This document shows, piece by piece, positions 1,190-60,269 of a stretch of 64,000 nt of DNA; position 1 is the stretch's first letter, and each line of letters opens with the position of its first letter. The notes below the pieces were generated by a model. The model did not search any database. It saw only the letters and a program-made list of their open reading frames with translations, and was not told where the DNA came from. Where the stretch lies: assembly GCA_964016885.1 (NCBI GenBank), contig OZ024742.1, positions 59,520,001 through 59,584,000 on the forward strand, read 5' to 3'. The position numbers were made by a program, and so were the translations under genes. The stretch is from Eledone cirrhosa (Eukaryota).

Positions 1190-4100
1190 TCTTTGTGGCT
1201 TGGGGTCGTCATGGAAGCAGGGCCACCTGCTCAATGACCCCAGGTCACTAGACATAGATGTAGTGGCCATCAGCGAGACCAGAATCTCCGAAGCACGGGC
1301 CTTCGCACCGATCTTCGGCGGCTACGATGTCTACGCATCACCCAGCCGTCCGGGATCGGGCGGGGGGGGGAGTGAGTTGCTGTGCTTTTTCGAAGAGCTT
1401 TGGATCTCGCCATACGGGCCATCTTCCTGGAGCCAGAAGGTAAGTTGGTCGTGCTGGACGGGCAAGCTTTCAGGCTAGTGGCCGTCTATGCCCCGACAGG
1501 AGCAGGGCGGCCTGATTTCTTCCGGCATCTGAAGACCTTTCTTGGAACGTGCCGCTCTTTAGTGTTAGTGGGCGACTGGAACGGGATCTTAGATGCACGC
1601 TGGGACTGTGTGGGATTAGTGGATAGGGGAGGAGGGTGCAAGAGTCTCACCAACCTGCTCAGGCGTTTTGACCTGTCTGACAGGTACCGATTGGATTTCC
1701 CGAATGTGCCAATGTGGACAAATCTCATAGGCTCATCCAGATCATATCTAGATAGAGTATTTTGTAGGGAAATAGATAGTCTAGTCTAGGCTGTCTATAA
1801 TTCAATATAGTCAGCTACACGGACCACAAATTCGTGATCTGTGTGCTTGACTTAGATAGGCTTCATAGACGAGGACCCGGCTACTGGAAGCTAAACGCGT
1901 CCTTACCAGCGCGTAAGGCTTACAGAGACCGGATTAGCGAACTAGTTAAGCGAGCGTTGACGGGGCCGTGGTGGTTTGCTCTGAAAAGAACAATTAGAAT
2001 AGAGTCCATTAGGTTTAGTAAGGCTTTAGCAATAGAGAAAAATAGAACAGAGGGAGAAATAGTTAAACAATTAGACGAGGCGCTTAGCAAAGGCATGGCG
2101 ACCGACGTACTTGCGGCTAAATTGGCCCTTGACCAATTTTTCAATGCAAAGCACGAAGGCTGCTTTGTCAGAGCTAGGGTGCGTGCTCTCAGACACGAGG
2201 GGACGAAAGCCGTTCAATGGGCCCGAGTGGCGGCGGCGCGTCGTGGCATCAAAGCCACGATCCGGTCTTTGGTGGACCACGACAGGCGCATTCTACTCGA
2301 TCTCGGGTAAATGTGTGAAGCTTTTCAGCGACACTTCGCACAGCTGTTCGGGGGCAGCGGCGGGCCGTTTCGAGGGATTGACTTTAGTGTCTACCACGAC
2401 GGACTGCTGCGGCTCTCGGCCACTGAGGCGGTGTGTTGCGAAAAGCCGATAACAGCCGCTGAAGTACGGGTGGCAATGACTGGCTGCACAAGGGGTAAAT
2501 CGCTTGGTTTGGATGGTCTGCCATATGAACTTTACGTACAGATGCCAGACTTGTTCGGAGGCCTCTTGGCGGACGTCTACTGCAACTGGCAACAGAACGG
2601 GAGAATTCCCAGCTCTGAAAGCCGAGAAGCTGTGGCGCTGCTGAGAAAGGATCCAAATAAGTAGGATAACATAGATAATTTCAGGCCCATAACTCTGCTA
2701 AACACAGAGTTCAAGATTTTGGCCAAGGTGCTTGCAAAGAGGTTGGCGCTTGTCGTTGGTGGTCTGGTGGTAGAGGCGCAGACGTGCGCCATTCCCGACA
2801 GATCCATCCACGACAACCTCCACCTCATGCGATACATCGTAGAGAGGGTAGCTAGGGAACCTGGCACTGGTGGGTGCTTGATCAATTTAGATCAGTCGAA
2901 AGCTTTCGATAGGGTCGACCATCGTTACCTAGCGGCAGTCCTGAGGGCGGCTGGCTTTGGGCCCGTCTTCAGAGGCTAGATTGCTACCATGCACAGCGAC
3001 ATCTGCTCTGTGGTGAGAGTGAACGGTCACCTTTCGGAACCGTTCAACATCATGCGCTCGGTCCGCCAAGGATGTCCCCTCTCGTCCCTCTTGTACGTAT
3101 TGACTCCCGAGCCATTACTGCACAAACTGGAGACGTTGAGGGGTGTCCAGCGCGAACTAGGATGCGGAAGATCCGTGTCAGCATATGCAGACGATGTCAC
3201 CGTAGTAGTGTCGAACGCCAAACACATCGAGGCGATCGGCACTACACTAAGAGCATACGAAGCGGTGACAGGAGCAATGATCAACCAGGAAAAGTCAGTG
3301 GGTCTGCAGCTCGGCACCTGGAGAGGCAGGTCCATGCTGTCCAACAGCGTCGTCGGGCGCTGGACTGACGGACCGGTTAAATTGCTAGGGATCTGGTTCG
3401 GTCCGGACCTCCAGACGGACAAAAACTGGGACAAGGTGACGAGCAGGGTGGCTTCTTTCACCCAGAAATGGGCGGAGAGGAAGCTATCCCTGAAAGGTCG
3501 AGCGGAGGTGGCTAACGCGTACATCGCGTCCGTCATCTACTACCGCCTGACCGTCGTACCTTGTCCTAAGCCCCGCCTGACTGCGCTGGAGCGTTTGCTC
3601 TTTTGCTTTTTGTTGAAGGGACGCGCTCCGATGGTCAGGCCGTCCATCTGCTCTCAACACCCGCTACGTGGAGGGCTGGGCATGCCGTGGCTGATGATGC
3701 GCAGACACGCACTCAGGCTACGACATCTCCACCTCTTCCTCGACGGTGATCAGGTGTGGTCGCCGTTTGCTATACACGTCTTTCCCCAGCTCGTTTCCTT
3801 GACGGAGCTGCAGTCCTGGGTCAAGCGAAGACCGAGAGGGAGCGCTTGGAGACTGGAATGTCTTCAGGCGCTCACAGCCCTCGACCAATCGGCAATGTGA
3901 TCGGTGGAAACTCCACCTTGGCGTTCTATAGAGCATTAGTGACTTGTGGGTTTATGTCGAACACCTGCTGTCACGTGTAGGACGGATCCAGCTATCAGCT
4001 GAGTCAATCGTGACGATTTCCCCGCCCTCTTCCTTTAGCCGGGAAGGGCAGGCAGTTTTTATCTGTCTGGTGGCCATGGCGAAAGAGATAGTATGGTGGA

Positions 4101-7442: not shown

Positions 7443-7488
7443 TAAACAAATAATGAACAAACAATTCCTTATATTAAACAAAAAAAGT

Positions 7489-7640
7489 TCATTATTTAAC
7501 GATCGTTTCTAGGATATATATGTGTTAGAATTGGTATGCATATTCAACAGATCTATGTACAAAATTATACAAAATTATACAAATTATCAAGATTAAATAT
7601 ACATACCAACACATATATACGCCGTCTTCAGAAATAATGA
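7489..7640 (-). ncRNA. Type I hammerhead ribozyme with ~115-nt stem-II domain
   Basis: Minus strand: tcattattt-CTGAAGA-[long hairpin]-GAAAC-gatc-GTT-aaataatga; 9-bp perfect stem I, palindromic stem III. Confidence 0.8.
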
Positions 7641-8289
7641 AGTATATTTATTGATAATAACAACAATTCAAAATTTCAGGTCCGTTTGGGAACAAAATTG
7701 ACCAATGAAAACACAAAGGGTTAAATGCAGTTCGGTGTGTGTATATACATGTAAAACCCTTACACATATTTTACAAAAATGTATGTATAATTTGTATACG
7801 CATACTAAAAGGATGGATGCAAATACAAAATTTCAAGGTTAATGTCTCTGTAAGTTTATAATGCACAGATAAGATGCGTATTGACACAAGTATGAAATTA
7901 AGTATATAAATATATCTTTTCATACTCACACATATCCGTACAATCACACATACACGCGCGTATATGCATAAATATACACATAACCACGAACATACAAACA
8001 CACACACACCCCCACTCACATTTATATATGTGGATATAAAATCATAAGCACATGGATATTAATTCACTCACATAAAACACTGGCACACACATTTTTAGAT
8101 CAAGATACAGAAATTAGGTGGGAGGGGGGGGGGGGAGAGGTCAGTATTCAACGGTCTGAGCAGACTGCCTAATATAGATGTATCTATAAGCTAAGAAAAT
8201 AAAAAATAATAAATAAACATTAAAGAGGAAAGAATAGAAAGAAAAAAGAAAAAAGAAAAAAGAAAAAAGAAAAAAGAAAAAAGAAATAT

Positions 8290-11798: not shown

Positions 11799-13560
11799 TT
11801 AATTAGGTTTATAATATTTAAATGTTTTTTTTAGTTTATGATTACACGATATAATTAATTCCTGTCGTTTATTTAATAAGATATCCTTAGACTTCATTAT
11901 TTCAAATAGTTCTTGGGAACATAATCTACATTCATTTCTATTATTTTGATAAGGGGTGGCTCTTTTGAGCACACTCCAGGTCAAATCATATTCTATATTC
12001 TTATTTTTATAACTATTGATTTTTTCTGCTAGAGATGTTGTATTAGCCAGTGCGGCATTTTTAAAACTATGCTTGTGGGTATTAAACCTTGTCTTAAAAT
12101 TGTTAGAGGTAGCTCCTATATATGAGCAAATAGAATCTTTAGTTTTAACATTACATTTATAGACTATGTTGTTAACAAGACAATTCCCTTTTAATGGGCA
12201 GTTTGCTTTGTTTCTACAGTTACATCCTTTCGTTAATTCTGTATTTGAGGAGATATTATGGTTAATTTGATGTACTGGTGGTATACTTATGGTTTTCTTA
12301 CATTTATATGCATTATAGGCACTTATATTTTGTTTTATGTTATTTGTTGTAGAGTATGAGAATTTAACTGTAGACCTATTTAAGATTTGATGGTATTTGT
12401 GGTTTGGCGGGAAGTTTTTCTCAAGGATATAAAAAAATTTTTTAGCAATATTATCCTTAACTTGTAAATTAAAAGGAGCATTATACCAAGTAACCCGTCT
12501 ATTACGGTTTCTATGTTGTTTATTATTTTTATTATTTTTATAGGTTGTATCGTGATTTTTACTAGGAGGATTAATGTTAATGATCTCACCACAACTATTT
12601 TTAGTTATATTTGTAGATTTAGGAGTTTTATCCTTTTTATTAGGAGTTTTATTATTAATATTTATTAGAGTTGTATGATGAGTAGTTTTTTGAGAGTTAC
12701 TATACTTTATATTAGAAGGTTTGGTATTTTGGGGTATAGTGTGGGTGGCATTTAGGTGTGTACTTTTCATTTGGTGTTTGTTGGTAATATTATGTTGTAT
12801 GCTTTCAGTATTTTTAGTAGAAGGTATATACTCTAATCTATTTTTGTGGCCACTTCTATCCAGAGCTTCGTTATAGAAGGTCGCATTTTTATCAAATACA
12901 TCTTGGTTAGAAGAAAGGTTAGAAATTCTAAGTGATATATTATATGCAAGGTTTTTAAGGATAGATTTAGGGTGATTAGATTGTGAGTGTATGTAATGTA
13001 AGTTTTGGTTAGGTTTATGGTAAGGTTGGTATATACCCGTAGCTAAATCTAAAGTTATATCTAGGAAATTTACTACTTTACTTGTTTTTTCAAAAGTAAT
13101 ATTAAGATTATAATAGTCTTTAAGGAAAGTTCTAATATGTTTTTTGTTTTTTTTAATTTCTGAAAGGCTAAGTTTGTTAGAAAGAAGAAGACAGTCATCA
13201 CGATATAAACCACCTTTGAGGTGGGGAAAAGAGGCATTTATGTTGAAAAGGAGAAAGAGGCCCACACGATCAGTAATTTGGGCGGAATCGCTTGAACCCA
13301 TAGTAATATCAAAAAGATTACTATATGTGTTTCTGGTCCAGTATTCATTCTGAAATTCAATAAGTGTTAGTCTAGCATGTGTAATAATATTAATGTCATC
13401 CAAAGTTAAGTTAGATCTATTTTTAGCAAATATCAATGCTTTGTTCAGGAGTATAGGTGATATAGAAGAATAGTAATTATCTATATCAAATTGTAGGAAT
13501 GAAGCAGAAGATTTACACCTAATATTTTTAAACCAGTTAATTACCTGGGAGGTGTTTTCC

Positions 13561-13562
<2 letters not shown>
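11799..13562 (-). mobile_element. Penelope-like element ORF (RT + thumb + Cys linker + GIY-YIG), Naiad-like, 5'-truncated at (TA)n
   Basis: Frame stays open upstream of the called start: [24 protein letters not shown]; then FDITMGSSDSA, GLYRDDCL, VNFLDITLDL, CNCRNKANCPLKGNC, VYKC..YIGATSNNFKTRFNTH, CRLC. Clade assignment is from motif recall. Confidence 0.9.
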
Positions 13563-17662: not shown

Positions 17663-17760
17663 TGAGATTCTACACGACTAGAACTGTTTCATTCTTGAGA
17701 AATCATCATATTCCTGATGATTTCTCAAGAATGAAACAGTTCTAGTCCTGTAGAATCTCA
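17663..17760. ncRNA. Palindrome of two opposed hammerhead copies
   Basis: 46-bp arms with one mismatch around TATTCC; + strand attc-CTGATGA-tttctcaagaat-GAAAC-ag ttctagtc ct-GTA-gaat; same family as 28785-28835. Confidence 0.8.
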
Positions 17761-18975: not shown

Positions 18976-20774
18976 AAGAGAGTATTGAAGTTTGCTTGAA
19001 GCATTGTGGAACAATAAGTAAATATCTTTAAGTCGTTTGGAAGCCTCGACAATGCAAATGGGTAAATCTCCGGGTAACAAGGTCCGGTGGTGGAGAGAGA
19101 GATGTAAATGGGTGTACGTTGAGATGCGTGGTGTGTATAAGATGTGTGAGATGTGTAGAATGAAGGGAAGAGTATAAAGGATAAAATTAAAATAACAACA
19201 CAAGAGAGAGTTACCTTGGGAGAGATTTAATAGTCCCTATATATATTTCGGATTCACATCCATCAACTGGGGTTTTTTTCCGGGGTGGGGGGAAAAGGTT
19301 GTCTGTCGGACAAGTCCGGAACGCGTCCTTCGCTGTTTGTTGTTTTGAATATCTGAGGTATTCGGCAGAGCGCGCGTGCGCGTGAAATGGGGTCGGTCGT
19401 ACAGAGGTCAGCGGCCGAATGAGGGAGTGGGATGGCGCTAGCTGTCAGTCCATTCTCTGCCTGTTTGTTAAATGTTACTGTGTGTGTGTGTGTGCGTGTG
19501 TTGTCTCGCTTGAGTGTGTGTGTGTGTGTGTGTGCGTGTGTTGTTGCCTTGTTCCTCTGTATTGGCAGTGTAGTATGTTCGTATGGTGGAATGCTACTGT
19601 GTGTGCGTGCGTGTGTGTGTGTAGTTGTCTCGTTTGCGTATGTGTGTGTGTGCGTGTGTTGTGTGTTGTTGCATCGCTTGTTAACTTAAACCAGCCATTT
19701 CATTTCGCTTCTCTCTGATCGGTTGTTTATTTGCGGTTGCAGTCGTTTGATAAAAAGCGCTTCCTTGAAACGTAACGTGCCGACGTTTCTTTCAGTCGCT
19801 AGAATTGTGACAATGGGCCTTCCGTCTTTGTTTCCGCATTTGTCTATGTGTTTCCGGAAAGACGAGGCCCTGGTTTTAATGTGTTCCTTGATCCGGATGT
19901 GCAAAGGTTGAATTGTGCTACCTATGTAGTATTGGTTGCACCTGTCACATTCTATCTTATACACGACGTATGTGCGTAGGCAACAGTTAGCATGGCGTAT
20001 CGGGCAGTCTCTGAGGGAGCATGCGTCAGTAGATTTTTCGGGTTTCCTGGAGAGGCATCTTCGTAGGGAGGGGCCCGAGTGGGCCAGGTGGATGTCGAGG
20101 CCCTCCCTCCGTATAGCCTTGCGGATAGCGTTGGTGGTTTTCTCGCCCAGGTGTGGCATTTTAAGGAAGCACTTGCCTTGGGTGCTTCTCTGTCTCTTGC
20201 GTCTGGTGTCTCCTATTCTGTCTGTGATCGAGGTAGGGTACCCGTTCGTCTCCAGCACCTCGAGGAATCGCTTGGTATGAGTGACAGCACTCGCGGGATC
20301 GCGGCATCTGTTTTTGATTCGCGCGATCTCGTTCGTGAAGTATCCTCTTTTGGCACTGTTAGGGAGGACGGACTTGTAGTGAACGAATAGGTCCCTGCAG
20401 GCTGCCTTTCGGTAGAAGTTGCAGTGGACCCTTCCCTGTTCCGTGATGTTGATTCGGAAGTCGAGGAGGGCAAGTGACCCGTCTTCGTTGGGGTGTTCAA
20501 CACTGAAGTCAATGTTCTCGTCCGTGTTGTTGAACGTCTCATAGATTCTGTTCGCCGTGTCTTGGGAAGATGTGAGGATGAGGATATCGTCCACGTACCT
20601 TGAGAAAAAGGCTACGGCGTTGGGGTGGCAGGCGTTGAGTGCCTTGCGTTCGAGGTTGTCCATGTAAGAGATCGCTAGCACACCTGATACGCTTGATCCC
20701 ATTGGCAATCCCGAGGTTTGTTGGTATATTTGGTCAAGGAATCCGAAATAGGTGTTGTCGACGACGATGGATAG

Positions 20775-20775
<1 letters not shown>
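18976..20775 (-). mobile_element. Penelope-like element 2, 5'-truncated (RT C-half + GIY-YIG ORF 20775->19686, 3'UTR)
   Basis: YQQTSGLPMGSSVSGVLA, RYVDDI, LLDFRI, FYRK, CSLRDCPIRHANCC, VVYKIECDRCNQYYIGST, RIKEH, KEALFIKRLQPQIN; ends at (TA)n. The N-terminal third of the called ORF is microsatellite. Confidence 0.92.
19235..19271 (-). ncRNA. Decayed minimal hammerhead in PLE-2 3' region
   Basis: Minus strand: ccc-CaGtTGA-t-ggat gtga atcc-GAAA-tatat-ATA-ggg; stems intact, two core substitutions. Confidence 0.5.
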
Positions 20776-21204
<429 letters not shown>

Positions 21205-25591: not shown

Positions 25592-25735
25592 AAGACCTCC
25601 CTTTACTCTTTTGGGGACAGCGAGTAATTTTTCTTTGGCTGGATTCTAATCTACCAGTCTCTTCTTAACGCTGAGGGAGACCATCACCATTTTATTAATG
25701 TCAATATAATTCTTATATCGATATTAATTTGGGCA

Positions 25736-25859
25736 TCCACTGATGAGTTTATAAGAGCCCGCTTGTGTATAAAACTACGGATTATATACAAGTTTCTACA
25801 TAATCTGGAAATTATTTATCCCAAATTGTAGACAGCCTATAACGAAACGGCCGTCTGGA
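25736..25859 (+). ncRNA. Type I hammerhead ribozyme with 97-nt stem-II domain
   Basis: tcca-CTGATGA-gtttata...tataac-GAAAC-ggcc-GTC-tgga; intact core; within module ~25600-26042 ending in (TA)n. Confidence 0.82.
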
Positions 25860-26037
25860 AGGAAAGAGATATTTATTTAATAATGTCTCATATAAAATAA
25901 TACGACCAACTATCCACGAAATACTGATTAGTTAGCACCCCAAACACTGAATTGGAATAATACTTAAGTATATCCTAATGTTTGTTGAGTGAGATGGAGT
26001 TGGTCGGAGTATCGCTTAAGGCTTTCTCTGTTTATGT

Positions 26038-26075
<38 letters not shown>

Positions 26076-26147
26076 CAGGAACAAAAAACAGAGAGGCAGT
26101 ACAAATGGTGGTTTATTAGGTTCACGCTTTTGAGAGTGGGAGCAGAG

Positions 26148-26180
26148 GACGACGTTTCGGGCATAATCCCTTCATCAGTA
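26148..26180 (-). ncRNA. Minimal PLE-type hammerhead
   Basis: Minus strand: CTGATGA-agggattatgccc-GAAAC-GTC; stem I weak. The module end 26077-26140 recurs at 40603-40665. Confidence 0.65.
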
Positions 26181-26977
26181 GAAAAGTGGGTAGGAAAAAA
26201 TTCCGAGGGTGTGTGGGAGAGTAGTGGAAAGACGTTTAAAAAAAGGAGGAAAAAACGATTTTTTAGGAGTACAAATAAAAATAAGAATAAACATAAAAAT
26301 AAACAAGTGGTAGAAGGGTGTGAGGCATGTTGGGGTGATGGCGGGTGGTGGTGGAGGGGGGAGAGGGAGGGGCTACGAGCGGGGGAGGTCTGAAGGTGGT
26401 GTTTGTGTATGTGTGTAGGTGTACGTGTGGTTGTGTGTGTGTGTCTGTATGTGAATGTGAGAGTTGGGGGAAGAACGAGGTTCCATGTTCAGGAAAAGAG
26501 GAACCTGTGTGTACATGGGGTGGGGTGTAAGTTGGTGTGTGCGTGCGTGTGGATGGAGAGGGGTTAGCGGTGGGGCGTGTGGATTCCGGGGGCTGAGTGT
26601 GTGTATGTGGGGATACGCACGTGTGTGTTTGTGTTTATACGTGGTGTGGGTGTAGATGGCATGGTTCGAAAAAAATGTGAGTGTTTGTTCGTGGGTATGT
26701 TCCTAAAGTAGTTCCGTGGAGTGTGAGATATTTCTCATGTTATAGAGTGGATAGCTGGAATGATGATCGGTGGTGTGAAATCCTGTTGTGATAGTGCGGA
26801 ATTGGAGAGATGTGGGGTGCGCGCGCAACAGGAAGTGGTCACAGGGTCAAGAGATATATATCAAGGCAGGGTGAAGATATATATATATATAAGTGCGGTA
26901 AGGAACCAGGTGGACCATAACACACCAGATTACTCGATACTTAGGGTAGTAGAGTGAGTAATAGGAAAAGAGTCAGG

Positions 26978-27045
26978 ACCCCGACGGCTGAGCTCCGGCC
27001 GTTTCTACAGCTAGGTCTGAACTAACGCAGTAGTGTCAGGACGGT
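26978..27045 (-). ncRNA. Decayed hammerhead with extended stem III
   Basis: Minus strand: CTGAcac-tactgc..gctgta-GAAAC-ggc cggagctca gcc-GTC; module 26891-27000 is homologous to 40840-40952 (+). Confidence 0.5.
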
Positions 27046-27827
27046 AGTAGTCAAGCTAAACTTATCAAGGGGTAATTCCATATATAGGCATGTAATGAGA
27101 GCGTAGAAATGTTCTATCAAAACATTCTTAAAGTTGTTTTTCATTTCTATCACTGGGAGTGTTAAACGTTTTGTAAACGCAGTTACATTCCGTCATAGCG
27201 GCGGGTGGGGGTGGGGGTGGCTGAACTTGACTGTAGAACAAGGGGAGGGAGTAAGATGACAATCTGGCCTGTGGATGCAGGCCAGTCATGCATTAAAAGA
27301 AAATTCTATACAGCTATCTAAAGGGGGTGAAGAACCTATGACAAACAAGGAATATCGTAGAATTAATAGGTCAAGCGTTGACTAGGAAGCAAAGCATATA
27401 GAATTTAATACAAAATTCCAAATTAATAAGGATTTAGCTATTAGTTCGTCCAATACACTGACTCAGCATCTCAAGGTACTAATTTATCAAAATTATCGTC
27501 CGTAGTGATGCACGCCCCCAAAAGAGAAAACACTGGCTATATGTTCGGCCGGTGCTATATATATTTAACTGGAGTGGAAATACTAGGGTTATATATATAC
27601 ACAGTGGCGGACCGGCCAAGAAGCCAGGTTCCACAATGGCAAGTGGGCCCCAGAGGGACAGCGGTTGCATTGCAGGGCCCACTGTAGTATTTTAGGGGTC
27701 AGTGCTTTGCTTTCAAAAAATACCTGAAGTCTAAGAGAAACAATAAACTTAAAAAAAAGAAAATAAAGCAATCAAGCAAAGCATTCGCTCAACCAATTCC
27801 CCAGGGAATTAATAGAAACCAAAATAT

Positions 27828-28040
27828 ATGTTTGTGGTCGTACCGTTGGCAGTGGAGACTTCTGGTGTTCTAGGCCCCAGAGCTACCTCCCTACTCACCA
27901 CCATAGGCGCTGAGCTGGCCAGCCACAGGTGTGAGCCTCGCGAGTTGGAATGGCTTTTCCAGTGCGTCTCTCTTGCCGTCTTCTGGGGAAACGCCTTCTC
28001 CAGTCTGTCCGCCGGGGCTATTAGGAGTCCACCAAAGTGA
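27828..28040 (+). mobile_element. 3' fragment of RLE-type (CRE/NeSL-like) non-LTR element
   Basis: VPLAVETSGVLGPRA...WLFQCVSLAVFWGNA matches the PxAVETxGxxG...FQRxSxAxxRGNA endonuclease tail. Confidence 0.75.
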
Positions 28041-28264
28041 TTGATTGACTTGTCATTTTATCAGTCATTTTATCAACTGTTGCTGTCGTTAACAAATTAA
28101 CGTACCTGCCAGTATCAAGGACCTGACCATTCAGTAAACAGGGATTCATCGATTGTGATAGTACAAATAGCTGGAATCAGTGATTATACATTCTGCTGAA
28201 TCTAAAGCTTAGTGTATTAATTCATGCATGCAAACAAACATATGTAGACACACACACAATCATA

Positions 28265-28339
<75 letters not shown>

Positions 28340-28747
28340 AGAAACACAGTAAACCGTGTGTCTAATATTACGAGGGTTGAAAGACCACATTTGTTTGAAA
28401 AATTTAACCATGAAGCAGACAGAATGATAAAATAAAATAAAATTATATTATACAAACCGCCTCAATAACAATTATATCTCTCGAACAGATATTATAAGCG
28501 CGCGACGTTATATCTATGTATCTATCTAAAAATACAGAGTAAGAAAGAGAGAGCAATGTCGTATTATATATATTATATATAATAAAGTACCAGTAATGTA
28601 CTGGGATAATTGCTGGCCTTGTGCCAAAAGTAGAAACAATTATACTTCTTTTTTATACAACTGTAAATAACATATTTATGTATGTATATATACGTATAAA
28701 GGAATGCTGTAATAAAATGTATAAATTAAACTGCCTCTTATTTATGA

Positions 28748-28782
<35 letters not shown>

Positions 28783-28784
28783 TG

Positions 28785-28835
28785 AGATTCTACAGGACTA
28801 GAACTGTTTCATTCTTTAGAAATCATCAGGAATCT
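28785..28835 (-). ncRNA. Solo type I hammerhead within (TA)n
   Basis: Minus strand: agattc-CTGATGA-tttctaaagaat-GAAAC-ag ttctagtc ct-GTA-gaatct; intact core, 6-bp stem I. Confidence 0.85.
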
Positions 28836-28899
28836 ATATATATATACACACACAGATAACGAAGTCAATGTACAGAATGGTTTTCATAATGCAGACAGC

Positions 28900-29510
28900 T
28901 AGTCATACAGAGACATATTATAAGGGCGCGACGTTATAGCTATGTATCTATCTAAAAAGACAGAATAAGAAAGAGGGAGGAATATCGTATAACAGGAAGT
29001 GTTGACATTTGAAAATTTAAAAAAAAGTAAAAGTGAATATTTAAATAATATCTTTAATCTTTTAACAAAATTCAGTAGACAAAAATACCCTCACTTTCTT
29101 ACTTGGAAAAAGTTACACCTATGGTGCAAATTTGGTGCCGTTTGGTTCAGCCGTTTGGCGAAAAGTTTGTTACATACATATGGCCGTCAGCTTTATTAGC
29201 ATAGATTATAATAACAGATTAAAGTTTAAGCAAAGAATCGCTGCTTTCACCCTTAACGGGATCTTCTGAAACTAAGAAAATCAATCTGTGAACTCAGAAG
29301 TAAATATTTAGAAAAACGTTGCAACCGAAGGAAAATAGGAAGACGGTACTTTGGTTCGTGAAGACGTTCCCTGGCAAAGAACGGAAAAAAGCGAAGATAA
29401 TACGGCGTTATGTGGAACAACGAGAACAAATACACGCAAAGACAAAACCGCGTTTATGGTATGAATGGAGACGTATTCTGTTTAGAAAACCGAATGATTC
29501 TCGGCGTCGG
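28900..29510 (-). mobile_element. Non-autonomous Helitron-like segments (5' terminus near 29205)
   Basis: Minus strand begins a-TCTATGCTAATAAAGCTGACGGCC; blocks 28980-29206 and 29210-29368 recur at 34015-34232 and 33855-34012. Confidence 0.6.
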
Positions 29511-29925
29511 TGTTAAGATTAATTATTTCTACTTTTGGCACAAGGCCAGCAATTACCCAGTACTTTATTTTATCGGAGTTAAGAATAATGTAAATAAATT
29601 AGTAGGACGAAAATGACAGGTTTTTAATATCATAAAAGTAATAATAATAAATATATCCATACACACATCTATATACGTACATACACGTGCATACCCGAAA
29701 ATACCCGCCATGCATGCATATACATACACGTACACATAAACATGCGCCATAACAAAGGAGATTAATAATCTTTAAAAGGTATCTATATTTGAAGTTCTCG
29801 TTAAATTTTAATTAGTTACCTACCTAGCTGTGTGTGCTTACACTCTTTACAAACTATCCCTTGTGATTGTTTCATGTTTATTTTATATATATATATATAT
29901 ATAAAATAAACATGAAACAATCACA

Positions 29926-30786
29926 GAAGGGATATATTCGATATGTCTCATATGAAATAATACAGCCAATTTTCCACGCAATACTTTTAGTTAGCACTCC
30001 CGAACGCATAATTGGGAATATAATCACTTATTTCCTAATGTTTGTTGAGTGAGTTGGAATTTGGCCGGAGTATCGCTAAAAAGCTTTCTCCGATATTGTA
30101 TTTATTTATTTACTCTTGGCGCAGCAGATTTGAAATTTTCCCGGTATAAGGTTAGAATATCTTTGTTTATTTTTTATATATGAATATTGATTGTTCCTTG
30201 TATCTCATTCTGTTATTTTGCCCGAGAAAATATCTGTGTGTGTCATCAAATGTTGTACACACATAGATATTTTTTCAATTTCCAATTGAGTTCTTAGCAC
30301 GTGGCCTGAATTCCTTTTAGAGTTCATTGTCATGCGAATGTATTGTTTTTTTGGCGGTAATTTACTTCCTCATTTTTGAATCAGTTTGAGCATTTCTTTA
30401 GAACTGCTGGACTGGCAACCTGACAGATACCTCAGGTACAGATGATGATTATCGCTAAATACTGATGTTTTGTTAGATTATCAATATTAGTATTATGGAG
30501 CACCCACTGATGAATTATAGGAGCCCACTTGAATATATATCTATTGATGGTATACAAGCTCCTACATAAATTAGTATAATTTAACCCAAATTGAAGGAAT
30601 CCTATAATGAAACGAGATCGTCCGTCTGGGAAGAGATATATTCGATATGTCTCATATGAAATAATACAGCTAATCTTCCACGCAATACTTTTAGTTAGCA
30701 CCCCGAACGCATAATTGGGAATATAATCACTTATTTCCTAATGTTTGTTGAGTGAGTTGGAATTTGGCCGGAGTATCGCTAAAAAG
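29926..30786 (+). mobile_element. Non-coding mini-PLE/retrozyme-like element with partial direct terminal repeats
   Basis: 29926-30083 is nearly identical to 30630-30786; HHR lies just upstream of the second repeat; (TA)n on both sides. Confidence 0.75.
30503..30630 (+). ncRNA. Type I hammerhead ribozyme with 95-nt stem-II domain
   Basis: ccca-CTGATGA-attatagga...tcctataat-GAAAC-g agatcgtc c-GTC-tggg; intact core. Confidence 0.85.
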
Positions 30787-37390: not shown

Positions 37391-37495
37391 ATACCCACTG
37401 TTTTGTATAGAAACTCACTTCCCTTTTCTAATATATATATATATATATATATCATCATCATTTAACGTCCATCTTCCACGATATATATATATATG

Positions 37496-37627
37496 ATCAT
37501 TTCTGAAGACAGCATATATATGTGAAAGTATGTATATTTCCTCTGATAGTTTGTAATATGTTTACATAGATCTATATGATATATATACCATCGCACATAT
37601 ATTTCCTAGAAACGATTGTAAAATGAT
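37496..37627 (+). ncRNA. Type I hammerhead ribozyme with ~100-nt stem-II domain
   Basis: atcattt-CTGAAGA-cagcatatatatgtg...cacatatatttccta-GAAAC-gatt-GTA-aaatgat; same family as 7489-7640. Confidence 0.8.
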
Positions 37628-37922
37628 GAATTTTTTAATATATGGAACTTGTTCTTTGTATTTATTCATTGTTTTTATTAATTTATATATAAATGTATGT
37701 ATATATATGTATATATATATACATACATATGTATAAACATATATATATGTATATATATACATATGTATATACATATATATATATGTATATATATAAATAC
37801 ATATGTATATACATATATATATATACATAGATATGTATATACATATATATATATACATACATATGTATATATATATATATGTATGTATATATATGTGTGT
37901 CTATGTTTGTGTATACACACAT

Positions 37923-38164: not shown

Positions 38165-38212
<48 letters not shown>

Positions 38213-38232
38213 GTATATATATATATATATAA

Positions 38233-38265
<33 letters not shown>

Positions 38266-38324
38266 CGTATATATATATGTATATATATATATACGTATAT
38301 ATATATGTATATATATATATATAC

Positions 38325-38383
<59 letters not shown>

Positions 38384-38403
38384 CGTATCTATATATATAT
38401 ACG

Positions 38404-38434
<31 letters not shown>

Positions 38435-38448
38435 GTATATATATATAC

Positions 38449-38529
<81 letters not shown>

Positions 38530-38560
38530 TATATACGTATATATATATATATATATATAT

Positions 38561-40145
38561 AAAAGTAATATATATGAGTAATATATATGTTGAAACAGAT
38601 ACCAACATATCTGTATTTATATTGCAAAAGAAAGTTAGCCAGACTGAAGAATATTAATTATTATACCACAGTTCGTCCACATCGATTTAAAATAATAATA
38701 ATAATAAATCGACAAAAACTAGTTGTGCTGCCAAATGGCAATGATGTTTATACATATTTAAATTTCAAAGTCAAACCTGTTCAGTAGATAAGTTTAAACC
38801 TCAAAATCCAAACATGTTTCGAGATGGATATAAGTGTAGGAATATCATGCCACTGCTCTCCTCAGTAAACATCCAGAGACAATTGATAAGCTTCACTTCT
38901 AAATAATTTAAAAGACTGTGTGACGCACATGGGTTCACAGATTCAGGCTAGTCTCATAACCGTACTGCTAGAAATAACAGTCGTATATATGAGGCGAATT
39001 TTAGCTCGACGAAGAGCCGTTATATTAAGTGTAAGGAATTCTTTTACAATGGAATTAGCTCGAAAGGAAATATTCCTGAGCCGTGTATAAAAGTAATATA
39101 TATGAGTAATATATATGTTGAAACAGATACCAACATATCTGTATTTATATTGCAAAAGAAAGTTAGCCAGACTGAAGAATATTAATTATTATACCACAGT
39201 TCGTCCACTTCGATTAAAATAATAATAATAATAATAAATCGACAAAAACTAGTTGTGCTGCCAAATGGCAATGATGTTTATACATATTTAAATTTCAAAG
39301 TCAAACCTGTTCAGTAGATAAGTTTAAACCTCAAAATCCAAACATGTTTCGAGATGGATATAAGTGTAGGAATATCATGCCACTGCTCTCCTCAGTAAAC
39401 ATCCAGAGACAATTGATAAGCTTCACTTCTAAATAATTTAAAAGACTGTGTGACGCACATGGGTTCACAGATTCAGGCTAGTCTCATAACCGTACTGCTA
39501 GAAATAACAGTCGTATATATGAGGCGAATTTTAGCTCGACGAAGAGCCGTTATATTAAGTGTAAGGAATTCTTTTACAATGGAATTAGCTCGAAAGGAAA
39601 TATTCCTGAGCCGTGTATAAAAGTAATATATATGAGTAATATATATGTTGAAACAGATACCAACATATCTGTATTTATATTGCAAAAGAAAGTTAGCCAG
39701 ACTGAAGAATATTAATTATTATACCACAGTTCGTCCACTTTATTTAGAAGTGAAGCTTATCAATTGTCTCTGGATGTTTACTGAGGAGAGCAGTGGCATG
39801 ATATTCCTACACTTATATCCATCTCGAAACATGTTTGGATTTTGAGGTTTAAACTTATCTACTGAACAGGTTTGACTTTGAAATTTAAATATGTATAAAC
39901 ATCATTGCCATTTGGCAGCACAACTAGTTTTTGTCGATTTATTATTATTATTATTTTAAATCGATGTGGACGAACTGTGGTATAATAATTAATATTCTTC
40001 AGTCTGGCTAACTTTCTTTTGCAATATAAATACAGATATGTTGGTATCTGTTTCAACATATATATTACTCATATATATTACTTTTATACACGGCTCAGGA
40101 ATATTTCCTTTCGAGCTAATTCCATTGTAAAAGAATTCCTTACAC

Positions 40146-40150
<5 letters not shown>
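38561..40150. repeat. 530-bp head-to-tail repeat (~2.2 copies) plus ~410-bp inverted copy, HHR-containing
   Basis: Period 530 (38761 = 39291); inversion starts at 39739; (TA)n tracts with interspersed CG on both flanks. Confidence 0.93.
38806..38870 (-). ncRNA. Hammerhead in the 530-bp unit (also 39336-39400 minus, 39776-39840 plus)
   Basis: gttta-CTGAGGA-gag cag tgg...cca t ctc-GAAAC-at-GTT-tggat; canonical core, stem I relies on G-U pairs. Confidence 0.72.
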
Positions 40151-40236
<86 letters not shown>

Positions 40237-40268
40237 ACGTATATATATATACGTATATATATATATAC

Positions 40269-40300
<32 letters not shown>

Positions 40301-40475
40301 GTATATATATATATATATATACGTATATATATATATATTTATATATAAATATATATATATATATATACGTATATATATATATATTTATATATAAATATAT
40401 ATATATATATACGTATATATATATATATATATATAGGTATATATATATATATATACGTATATATATATATATATT

Positions 40476-40509
<34 letters not shown>

Positions 40510-40522
40510 CGTATATATATAC

Positions 40523-53589: not shown

Positions 53590-54360
53590 GGTTTCATCGC
53601 CTTGTGTGCATCTTGAACGGGCGCGGCTGACGTCATTTCCATGCCTATAGAGTTTATCGGGAACTGGCAGCGCTTCCTGGTAGCACTGATAGATCAGGAA
53701 TTTCTAGAAAGCCCTCCGGTAATGAATGGCTAATTGATTTTCGTCGATGTCCAGAGTTTCCCTAAGAACGTCATCGCTTTTACCCGCCATTAATAATTAT
53801 AGAACGCTGAAGTGATGTTTGCACCGATCATTTTGCTCGATTGGAAAAGAGCTGTGAGCGCTTGAAGATATTCCATTTTCCAAGCGCTCTCTCTCGGTTT
53901 TCGATTGACACAGTACTTCAGCTTTGTCAGGGAGACAAACTGGGAAAAAACGCGTCTAGAAAAGACCGTCCGAATCTGTTCATTGAAGAAAAGCTGGAAG
54001 ATCAGCCACAACATACCCAGTTCTCTAGGCTACGAGTGTTGACAGCAGATGGATCGCCTAACCATCGGAACGTAACTTTTCCATAAAAACCGGCGGTAGT
54101 AAATGAAGAATGCGATGTACACATTCACCAGCTCTGTTCAATGCTTGAGGGATAGCTTGCTCTCAGGTCATTTCAGGGTAAGAGTGTACACCCTGTTTGT
54201 TACATCGTCCCAGATTTCGATCATTTTGAGGTCTGGACCAAACTAGATCCTAAGTTATTTAACAGGTCCCTCCGTCATGCACCTGGTGAGGCTGTTGGAT
54301 GACATGGAACTACGTCTACATATGTTTTTCTTGTTAATGTTCACTTCTGTCACCACCTTG
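53590..54360 (-). mobile_element. Second, older copy of the Tx1-like LINE (RT C-terminal region)
   Basis: MSSNSLTRCMTEGPVK*LRI*FGPDL matches MLSNSVVGRWTDGPVKLLGIWFGPDL; VFSQFVSLTKL..RKPRESAWKMEYLQAL matches the first copy. Confidence 0.88.
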
Positions 54361-58419: not shown

Positions 58420-59850
58420 CTTGAAGTTACTCGTACTTCTATAGTATTAAAGACGAGAAGCAAGTTTAGAAGCTTGAAGTTACTCGTACTTCTATAGTAT
58501 TAAAGACGAGAAGCAAGTTTAGAAGCTTGAAATTACTCGTACTTCTATAGTATTAAAGACGAGAAGCAAGTTTAGAAGCTTGAAGTTACTCGTACTTCTA
58601 TAGTATTAAAGACGAGAAGCAAGTTTAGAAGCTTGAAATTACTCTTACTTCTATAGTATTAAAGACGAGAAGCAAGTTTAGAAGCTTGAAGTTACTCGTA
58701 CTTCTATAGTATTAAAGACGAGAAGCAAGTTTAGAAGCTTGAAGTTACTCGTACTTCTATAGTATTAAAGACGAGAAGCAAGTTTAGAAGCTTGAAATTA
58801 CTCGTACTTCTATAGTATTAAAGACGAGAAGCAAGTTTAGAAGCTTGAAGTTACTCGTACTTCTATAGTATTAAAGACGAGAAGCAAGTTTAGAAGCTTG
58901 AAGTTACTCGTACTTCTATAGTATTAAAGACGAGAAGCAAGTTTAGAAGCTTGAAGTTACTCGTACTTCTATAGTATTAAAGACGAGAAGCAAGTTTAGA
59001 AGCTTGAAGTTACTCGTACTTCTATAGTATTAAAGACGAGAAGCAAGTTTAGAAGCTTGAAGTTACTCGTACTTCTATAGTATTAAAGACGAGAAGCAAG
59101 TTTAGAAGCTTGAAGTTACTCGTACTTCTATAGTATTAAAGACGAGAAGCAAGTTTAGAAGCTTGAAGTTACTCGTACTTCTATAGTATTAAAGACGAGA
59201 AGCAAGTTTAGAAGCTTGAAGTTACTCGTACTTCTATAGTATTAAAGACGAGAAGCAAGTTTAGAAGCTTGAAGTTACTCGTACTTCTATAGTATTAAAG
59301 ACGAGAAGCAAGTTTAGAAGCTTGAAGTTACTCGTACTTCTATAGTATTAAAGACGAGAAGCAAGTTTAGAAGCTTGAAGTTACTCGTACTTCTATAGTA
59401 TTAAAGACGAGAAGCAAGTTTAGAAGCTTGAAGTTACTCGTACTTCTATAGTATTAAAGACGAGAAGCAAGTTTAGAAGCTTGAAATTACTCGTACTTCT
59501 ATAGTATTAAAGACGAGAAGCAAGTTTAGAAGCTTGAAGTTACTCGTACTTCTATAGTATTAAAGACGAGAAGCAAGTTTAGAAGCTTGAAATTACTCGT
59601 ACTTCTATAGTATTAAAGACGAGAAGCAAGTTTAGAAGCTTGAAGTTACTCGTACTTCTATAGTATTAAAGACGAGAAGCAAGTTTAGAAGCTTGAAGTT
59701 ACTCGTACTTCTATAGTATTAAAGACGAGAAGCAAGTTTAGAAGCTTGAAATTACTCGTACTTCTATAGTATTAAAGACGAGAAGCAAGTTTAGAAGTTT
59801 GAAATTACTCGTACTTCTATAGTATTAAAGACGAGAAGCAAGTTTAGAAG
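58420..59850 (+). repeat. 53-bp tandem minisatellite, 27 near-identical copies
   Basis: Unit CTTGAAGTTACTCGTACTTCTATAGTATTAAAGACGAGAAGCAAGTTTAGAAG; 1431 bp = 27x53; no spacers. Confidence 0.97.
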
Positions 59851-60269
59851 CTAGTTTGAAAAATGTTTATAAATTATTCACAACGTTGTATTGTCTAAAG
59901 TCCCAATAACATTTATGCTTTAGGAAAGTGTTTATTTTGTATTGTACATCAGGCGTAATATGAAACAAGGTAAGTTTCCATCCAAGCCCCTACCCCCCCC
60001 CCGTTGATTTGAAGTTGATTACAACCTACCCACTGCTACAGTGAACGTTTTCAAGTTACCCACAGTTAAGTTGAAATGTGGGTAAATGAAATCGTTACAG
60101 AGGGAACATTTTTAGATTGAGTTGCTAAGACTTACTTTTACACATTTAATATCAAATCGTTTGAAACCGCTCCTAGATTTACCATGTGTGGATCTGTAAT
60201 TATTAATGGAGTTGTAGAGGCACCGTTGTGACACGCACCGGTGTCTGGGGGAAGGACTCCTGAACTGAA

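Follow-up and report, generated by a model that had tools for sequence, protein, structure and literature searches.

Small hammerhead ribozymes have been described in the pseudo-long terminal repeats (pseudo-LTRs) of Penelope elements (PMC4209133) and in Penelope-like elements of the Hydra clade (PMC8557442); these and the other papers cited below were compared in part. The pseudo-LTR hammerheads have a CUGANGA/GAAA core, a stem I of 4–5 base pairs (bp), a stem II of 7–9 bp capped by a loop 2 of 3–10 nucleotides (nt) and a palindromic stem III, and are found in dispersed, truncated copies that form subfamilies. The Hydra-clade hammerheads also have a loop 2 of 3–10 nt in all 26 rows listed. 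A 64-kilobase (kb) stretch of the genome of Eledone cirrhosa (contig OZ024742.1, positions 59,520,001 to 59,584,000 of the forward strand), here called the window, contains two hammerheads that share the features of the pseudo-LTR group, except that stem II closes a three-way junction of 75–80 nt instead of a small loop (Table 1). The repeat that carries them resembles Hydra-clade elements in its (TA)n target, in the U·U that some of its copies have as the basal pair of stem II and in its GUU, GUA and GUC sites but, unlike those elements, has no open reading frame (ORF), and no parent was found at the loci examined.

We consider it fairly probable that these are type I hammerheads of a protein-free, likely non-autonomous Penelope-like repeat, that the conserved three-way-junction domain is folded while two stem III sequences pair as a dimer, and that the tandem transcript is cut. 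Within the literature compared, a long structured stem-II domain on a known Penelope-type hammerhead appears to be new. No stem-II domain of this kind was found in the hammerhead, Penelope-like element and retrozyme papers compared, PMC10085705 and PMC8490949 among them; coverage of these was partial and earlier reports of a long loop 2 may exist. Two plant elements with a loop 2 of up to about 30–35 nt are included in File S2 of PMC8557442.

Other described systems share parts of this arrangement. Animal non-LTR retrozymes (PMC7229834; 10.64898/2026.07.22.740005) also consist of AT-rich tandem units that lack coding capacity, contain one type I hammerhead each and fold strongly as circles, and are also proposed to be non-autonomous Penelope derivatives. 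Their unit is 150–450 nt, whereas the unit studied here is 696–1009 nt, is known from DNA alone and is found mostly as insertions of 0.3–1.5 units with a fixed 3′ end; the canonical loop 1–loop 2 nucleotides of the retrozymes were not seen. The discontinuous Clec2 hammerhead (PMC6155905) has a large extra domain interrupting the core, but it is a type III ribozyme that is interrupted in helix I, and it lies in a host mRNA. The hepatitis delta virus-like ribozyme of R2 (PMC6765202) contains a large inserted domain but belongs to another ribozyme class. For Clec2 and R2 alike, the likeness is one of resemblance only.

Two hammerheads from separate subfamilies

A search of the window with a hammerhead pattern gave two matches, compared with none in 100 shuffles. 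A preliminary description of this DNA had placed both motifs, and an intact CUGAUGA/GAAAC/GUC core around a stem-II domain of 95–97 nt, exactly where they were found. Stem I is 4 bp long in both. The same description took the two for a diverged pair, which was incorrect: because subfamilies A and B are approximately 21% apart, the copies are samples of two lineages. The covariation reported for stem I is a genuine difference between subfamilies, probably arising from a single event, with U-A in 11 and C-G in 5 of the 16 rows of an alignment made up of 14 natural subfamily representatives and the two window copies. At the first pair of stem II (10.1–11.1), the reported alternation of G-C and A-U was seen (5 and 4 rows, with G·U in one), but copy 1 requires a bulged U and the remaining six rows have an unpaired U·U, so the covariation is weak. 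Natural hammerheads with U·U in this position have been described (PMC3088659, PMC7229834), and 14 of the 26 Hydra rows of File S2 (PMC8557442) have one.

Both window copies are slightly decayed, having 5 and 6 private changes relative to the type of their subfamily. Three private changes in copy 1 disrupt pairs where stem II meets hairpin B, while copy 2 has two in hairpin B and a private 1-nt insertion that weakens the stem III palindrome. Three of the changes in copy 2 were confirmed as private by DNA-like contigs (three runs, one sample). In the predicted folds of the window copies, the private differences abolish hairpin B.

Structure and covariation of the stem-II domain

When the alignment was folded unprompted with RNAalifold, stems I–III and both hairpins were recovered, with compensatory changes at 11 of 35 pairs. 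When the 42 pairs of the named structure were scored, 94% of cells were paired and 13 of the pairs had compensatory changes. None of 500 shuffles was as good, and slid controls were only 34–45% paired. Stem I, stem II, hairpin A and hairpin B all show compensatory changes. Against a null model with the tree and the per-column change counts held constant, the 20 pairs of the insert had, over the 14 representatives, 263 of 280 cells paired (234±8 expected) and 7 compensatory types (2.45 expected, p=0.0045), and hairpin A gave p=0.0135 on its own. Two unpaired stretches, the UAA of hairpin B and the CCC of the junction, are invariant or nearly so. The sequence enclosed by stem II had been described as drifted; it does differ, yet it retains two hairpins with compensatory changes, which is more than drift. 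These comparisons support a domain that would have been kept folded, as a three-way junction with two hairpins, by selection on structure across subfamilies.

Conservation of the core and of stem III

Over the 14 representatives, 12 of 13 core columns were invariant, the sole variable position being N7, and position 17 was C, U or A but never G. The nucleotides that define the core of type I hammerheads (C3-U4-G5-A6-N7-G8-A9, G12-A13-A14, A15.1-U16.1 and H17) are all present. The three helices of this type are present too, the ends lying in stem I and stem III being stable only as a self-duplex. The stem III loops (AAUU, GAUC, GGCC or a 9-nt near-palindrome) swap among subfamilies, self-pair at −6.4 to −14.7 kcal/mol and do not form a hairpin. 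As stem III changes only from palindrome to palindrome, these hammerheads retain, rather than depart from, the dimer design known from PMC4209133.

Divergence from the subfamily type was 0.2% in the core, 1.7% in the insert stems and 3.4% at unpaired positions (45/51 unbiased copies; the counts are not independent). Changes seen in single copies were alike in stems and loops, at 0.65–0.80% per cell, while variants shared between copies were found at 1.8–3.8% of sites in the core, stems and hairpin B, 7% in hairpin A and 10.1% in loops; this test goes in the expected direction with small counts. Since singletons are similar in stems and loops and shared variants are fewer in stems, it is the inserted copies that decay and the transposing source lineages on which selection works. 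The 5 and 6 private differences of the window copies fit such decay after insertion.

The carrier repeat

DNA searches with the two window copies gave 1,909 and 2,789 candidates, with the 40 scored of each at 95–98% identity. Genome-wide, the exact core with a spacer of 88–104 nt was matched 2,826 times (reversed control, 0) and a 20-mer from the 3′ part of the repeat 6,937 times. No match was found in metagenome contigs. Six-frame reading of the repeat unit revealed no ORF, and so the reverse transcriptase and GIY-YIG endonuclease frame that marks an autonomous Penelope-like element is not present. The copies are dispersed, partial head-to-tail tandems, mostly of 0.3–1.5 units, and the distance from cut to cut was 696–1009 nt at 14 loci with two hammerheads, two of which are interrupted or chimeric. 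Like non-LTR retrozymes, these 14 units are non-coding tandem repeats that each contain a type I hammerhead.

The 3′ end is fixed. In 81 of 86 terminal copies (from 96 unbiased anchors) it fell between +182 and +197, counted from the predicted cut, and was followed by (TA)n, while the 5′ ends were variable; that of the subfamily B copy in the window is 3 nt past the position of the predicted cut. Partial tandems, a fixed 3′ end downstream of the hammerhead, 5′ truncation and a microsatellite target are all features of non-autonomous Penelope-like elements, and insertion into (TA)n in a similar manner has been described for members of this group (PMC8557442). The repeat is therefore likely to be a non-autonomous Penelope-like retroelement, and the link made in the preliminary description is backed both by this insertion behaviour and by a second long-domain family within an autonomous element (see below). 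Matches to neighbouring ORFs were rejected as the parent because they were separated from the unit by (TA)n runs or had a short hammerhead of their own (L147, L160). The unit showed no similarity to the ends of four other families.

In 39 pairs, repeats within one locus differed by 2.4%, compared with 3.9–7.0% between loci, and shared 90 minor variants where 28 were expected. This suggests that both repeats of a locus came from one monomer template, either a circle or by a template jump; gene conversion and recurrent C-to-T changes are alternatives. The 190 nt after the cut are predicted to form a multibranch structure that closes at the fixed 3′ end, with compensatory changes at 8 of 48 pairs, and this structure is a candidate recognition site for reverse transcription.

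Other hammerhead families in the genome

A second family with a long domain was found in the same genome, with 10,006 exact matches (control, 0) and a rod-like stem II of 99–116 nt. This hammerhead lies in the terminal repeats of an autonomous element with an 830-amino acid frame and a tandem spacing of about 6.6 kb. The rod-type hammerhead is upstream of the ORF start in one locus (L245), and in another (L243) follows the endonuclease by 705 nt with no (TA)n break. The protein has RWR and DKT motifs that match the description of the Hydra clade (PMC8557442), and when its C-terminal part was the query, at least 136 of 150 scored matches tied for the top score, at 100% identity. Judged from these sequences, this is an autonomous Hydra-clade element that targets (TA)n and is young and active in the genome. 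The rod-like domain shares no sequence with the three-way-junction domain.

On one contig (G000:C1), 24 of the 100 listed copies of the rod-type family are arranged head to head in 12 inverted pairs, the two members meeting within 1–47 nt just 5′ of stem I, and these inversion points pile up at the edge of the ribozyme (e.g. 26896608–26896891 and 43217573–43217858). Further families have stem-II domains of 47–58, 73 and 91–92 nt (L263:1500, L262:1500, L109:9360, L069:2592, L082, L098 and L145), several with a palindromic stem III. Short hammerheads with a U3-A8 variant core were seen upstream of a copy of the repeat studied here (L042) and at L267, L179 and L036, one of them immediately after a Hydra-like endonuclease frame. 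Other features seen in the window are included in Table 1.

Table 1. Hammerheads, carrier repeats and other features of the 64-kb window, numbered from its first nucleotide
Feature	Position	Strand	Details
Hammerhead copy 1, type I	25736–25859	+	predicted cut after C25855; palindromic stem III 25847–25854
Parts of copy 1	stem I 25736–25739/25856–25859; CUGAUGA 25740–25746; GUC 25853–25855		GAAAC and GGCC between domain and GUC
Stem-II domain, copy 1	25747–25843	+	97 nt; stem II closes three-way junction
Hairpin A, copy 1	25762–25792	+	part of domain with most covariation
Hairpin B, copy 1	25794–25833	+	internal loop starting with invariant UAA
Hammerhead copy 2, type I	30503–30630	+	predicted cut after C30626
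Parts of copy 2	stem I 30503–30506/30627–30630; CUGAUGA 30507–30513; GUC 30624–30626		GAAAC; 10-nt loop III
Stem-II domain, copy 2	30514–30608	+	95 nt; stem II 9 bp; hairpin A 30528–30558; hairpin B 30560–30598
Subfamily A copy	25594–26045	+	5′-truncated; unit ~760 nt; flanked by (TC)n and (TA)n runs
Subfamily B copy	29926–30786	+	1.2 units; 29926–30083 repeated at 30630–30786; unit 704 nt; ends in (TA)n
3′ region after cut	25856–26045; 30627–30786	+	predicted multibranch fold
Second long-domain family	7485–7645	−	element ORF 11799–13562 (−)
Second long-domain family	37490–37640	+	
Short hammerhead-like motif	17700–17760	+	stem II domain 12–13 nt
Short hammerhead-like motif	28785–28845	−	stem II domain 12–13 nt
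Short hammerhead-like motif	26135–26195	−	stem II domain 12–13 nt; inside Penelope-like fragment; stem I pairs poorly
Penelope-type fragment	19686–20780	−	Pfam RVT_1 and GIY-YIG; adjoins 430-nt microsatellite palindrome 20775–21204
Nested direct and inverted repeats	38168–40521		direct period ~528 nt; 99–100% identity; flanking TA runs; possibly another Penelope-like partial tandem
Homogeneous tandem array	58420–59852		27 copies of 53-nt unit, 98% match
Broken LINE-like reverse transcriptase frames	1801–3900	+	GC-rich; diverged inverted match near 53798–54320

Points against this interpretation and other explanations

A number of results weigh against the interpretation of a folded, selected domain on a cleaving ribozyme, and are considered here together with the explanations on which they bear. 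The helices tested for covariation were drawn from the very sequences used in the test, and the p-values are therefore optimistic. Hairpin B alone had 2 compensatory types and did not stand out under the tree-aware null (p=0.087). An expanded stem-II form under selection, as proposed in the preliminary description, does exist and its structure appears to be selected across subfamilies, but the covariation is not specific to the insert: the 3′ region covaries equally and the domain is not uniquely constrained. In addition, three units folded as circles gave z-scores of −5.1 to −6.5 (15 shuffles each). Together with the 3′ covariation, this makes the domain one part of a folded RNA.

These last two results would also be expected if the ribozyme is functional and the domain is a tolerated filler in a permissive loop 2, folded only to close stem II and keep the RNA compact, with no binding or regulatory role. 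Stem-II domains in unrelated families of this genome form a continuum of lengths (11–14, 20, 26, 36, 47–58, 73, 91, 93–98 and 99–116 nt), with neither sequence nor shape (rod or three-way junction) in common among the long ones, which also fits a filler. We nevertheless regard a filler as unlikely. The domain stays at 93–98 nt in units that range from 696 to 1009 nt, and the unpaired UAA and the junction CCC are invariant or nearly so. Genome-wide, only 84 copies have a shortened domain, compared with 3,509 of full length. No common breakpoint was seen in the first 30 of these 84, of which 11 also have a broken 5′ core, and there are few look-alikes among all 84, each recurring only 2–3 times. 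With no shared deletion amplified, no deletion has founded a subfamily, though the source lineages are few and a clean deletion may never have arisen in one of them.

The sequence GGGC just 5′ of stem I can pair with GCCC at the junction, and in the monomer folds of 8 of the 14 representatives this helix beats stems I and II. In 7 of the 14 its probability was 0.65–0.94, at the expense of stems I and II, and it was 93.8% paired in the 16 rows. The domain could then be a switch, in which GGGC/GCCC is either a pseudoknot that docks stems I and II, as stem I–II pseudoknots are frequent among natural hammerheads (PMC3088659), or a rival helix by which the ribozyme is kept inactive until its refolding by a partner or protein. 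We think this very unlikely, as no compensatory change was found (tree-aware p=0.11), leaving the pseudoknot unsupported. The GGGC/GCCC positions also contain the most within-subfamily variants (shared variants at 14% of sites), and copy 2 in the window is altered there.

The evidence for cleavage comes from 5′ ends. In 184 copies, 22 ends fell within −2 to +22 of the predicted cut where 8.0 were expected when TA-likeness was allowed for (p=3.5e-5), and this pile-up is an indirect sign that the RNA may be cut. However, the interval was the top of 15 and was picked after inspection of the data, and the excess is located at +7 to +22, adjoining a TA-like stretch. In the unbiased set, 1 stop was found within −2 to +6 (1.5 expected). 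Stops at the predicted cut were seen in 12 of 76 copies at the first encounter and in 10 of 33 at the second, most copies reading through. A further pile-up of 5′ ends, located a unit length away from the 3′ end, was weak (18 against 8.5) and was not used. The reading through and the shift of 7–22 nt would fit a motif that no longer cuts and is kept, core and hairpins together, as a recognition or reverse-transcriptase pause signal, with tandems arising without cleavage; the in vitro insertion of a lizard element was also independent of ribozyme cleavage (PMC11167929). This appears the least probable of the explanations considered, since the variation obeys catalytic rules, with only N7 varying, position 17 never G and stem III passing from palindrome to palindrome.

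Finally, when three Penelope-type proteins were used as tblastn queries, no ORF-bearing parent continuous with the unit was found at the loci examined, in a genome search that was not exhaustive.

Detection of long-domain hammerheads

The preliminary suggestion that length-limited tools would miss the long domain was correct. With the Rfam hammerhead model RF00163, copy 1 scored 19.6 bits, below the gathering cut-off of 34 because of the insert, 93 nt of which was skipped, and copy 2 gave no hammerhead match. When the whole window was scanned with Rfam, only microsatellite-driven matches were seen among the 150 of 309 that were listed. The published descriptor limits loop 2 to 3–10 nt (supplement of PMC4209133). 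With a loose core, 46,912 matches with a stem-II spacer of 85–120 nt were found in the genome (control, 10,768), alongside 151,513 with 8–30 nt (control, 10,317).

Proposed mechanism and significance

Taken together, we favour a cycle that would begin with transcription of a locus with two units. The two hammerheads would pair through their palindromic stem III as a double hammerhead and cut inefficiently, yielding RNA of unit length, which is probably ligated or else copied by template jumping. An autonomous element, probably of the Hydra clade, would supply the protein, which would nick (TA)n and start reverse transcription about 185–195 nt past the cut. Only sources in which the core is intact and the domain folds would found subfamilies, while inserted copies would decay.

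The domain likely helps the RNA either to cut or to bind the protein that copies it, by analogy with R2, in which the protein of the element binds to an extension within the ribozyme (PMC6765202), and with a Poseidon-element hammerhead that is cleaved only when its protein is present (PMC11167929). Most likely it would be a structural module of an RNA-protein particle in place of the small loop 2. It may also be a docking surface, through the unpaired UAA of hairpin B and the CCC of the junction, and this is the least supported step. A broader possibility, which we regard as doubtful, is that an unlisted class of hammerheads, with tens of thousands of copies in a single animal genome, arose separately in three or more Penelope-type families. 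Its loop 2, grown into a structured domain of 90–116 nt, would be a docking site for the reverse transcriptase that switches the ribozyme on, making cleavage protein-gated.

Hammerheads of Penelope-like elements, whose role is an open question, cleave poorly alone. The thousands of copies in this genome are a natural mutational scan with genomic hints of cleavage, and the large conserved domain at stem II makes protein-assisted cleavage directly testable. The same position in the hammerhead is used for engineering switchable hammerheads. Ribozyme censuses undercount in this genome, where there are approximately 36,000 long-domain cores above control compared with approximately 141,000 short ones. 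Long-domain cores are absent from such censuses because of the 10-nt limit on the loop, and this may bear on elements that have been reported to have no canonical hammerhead.

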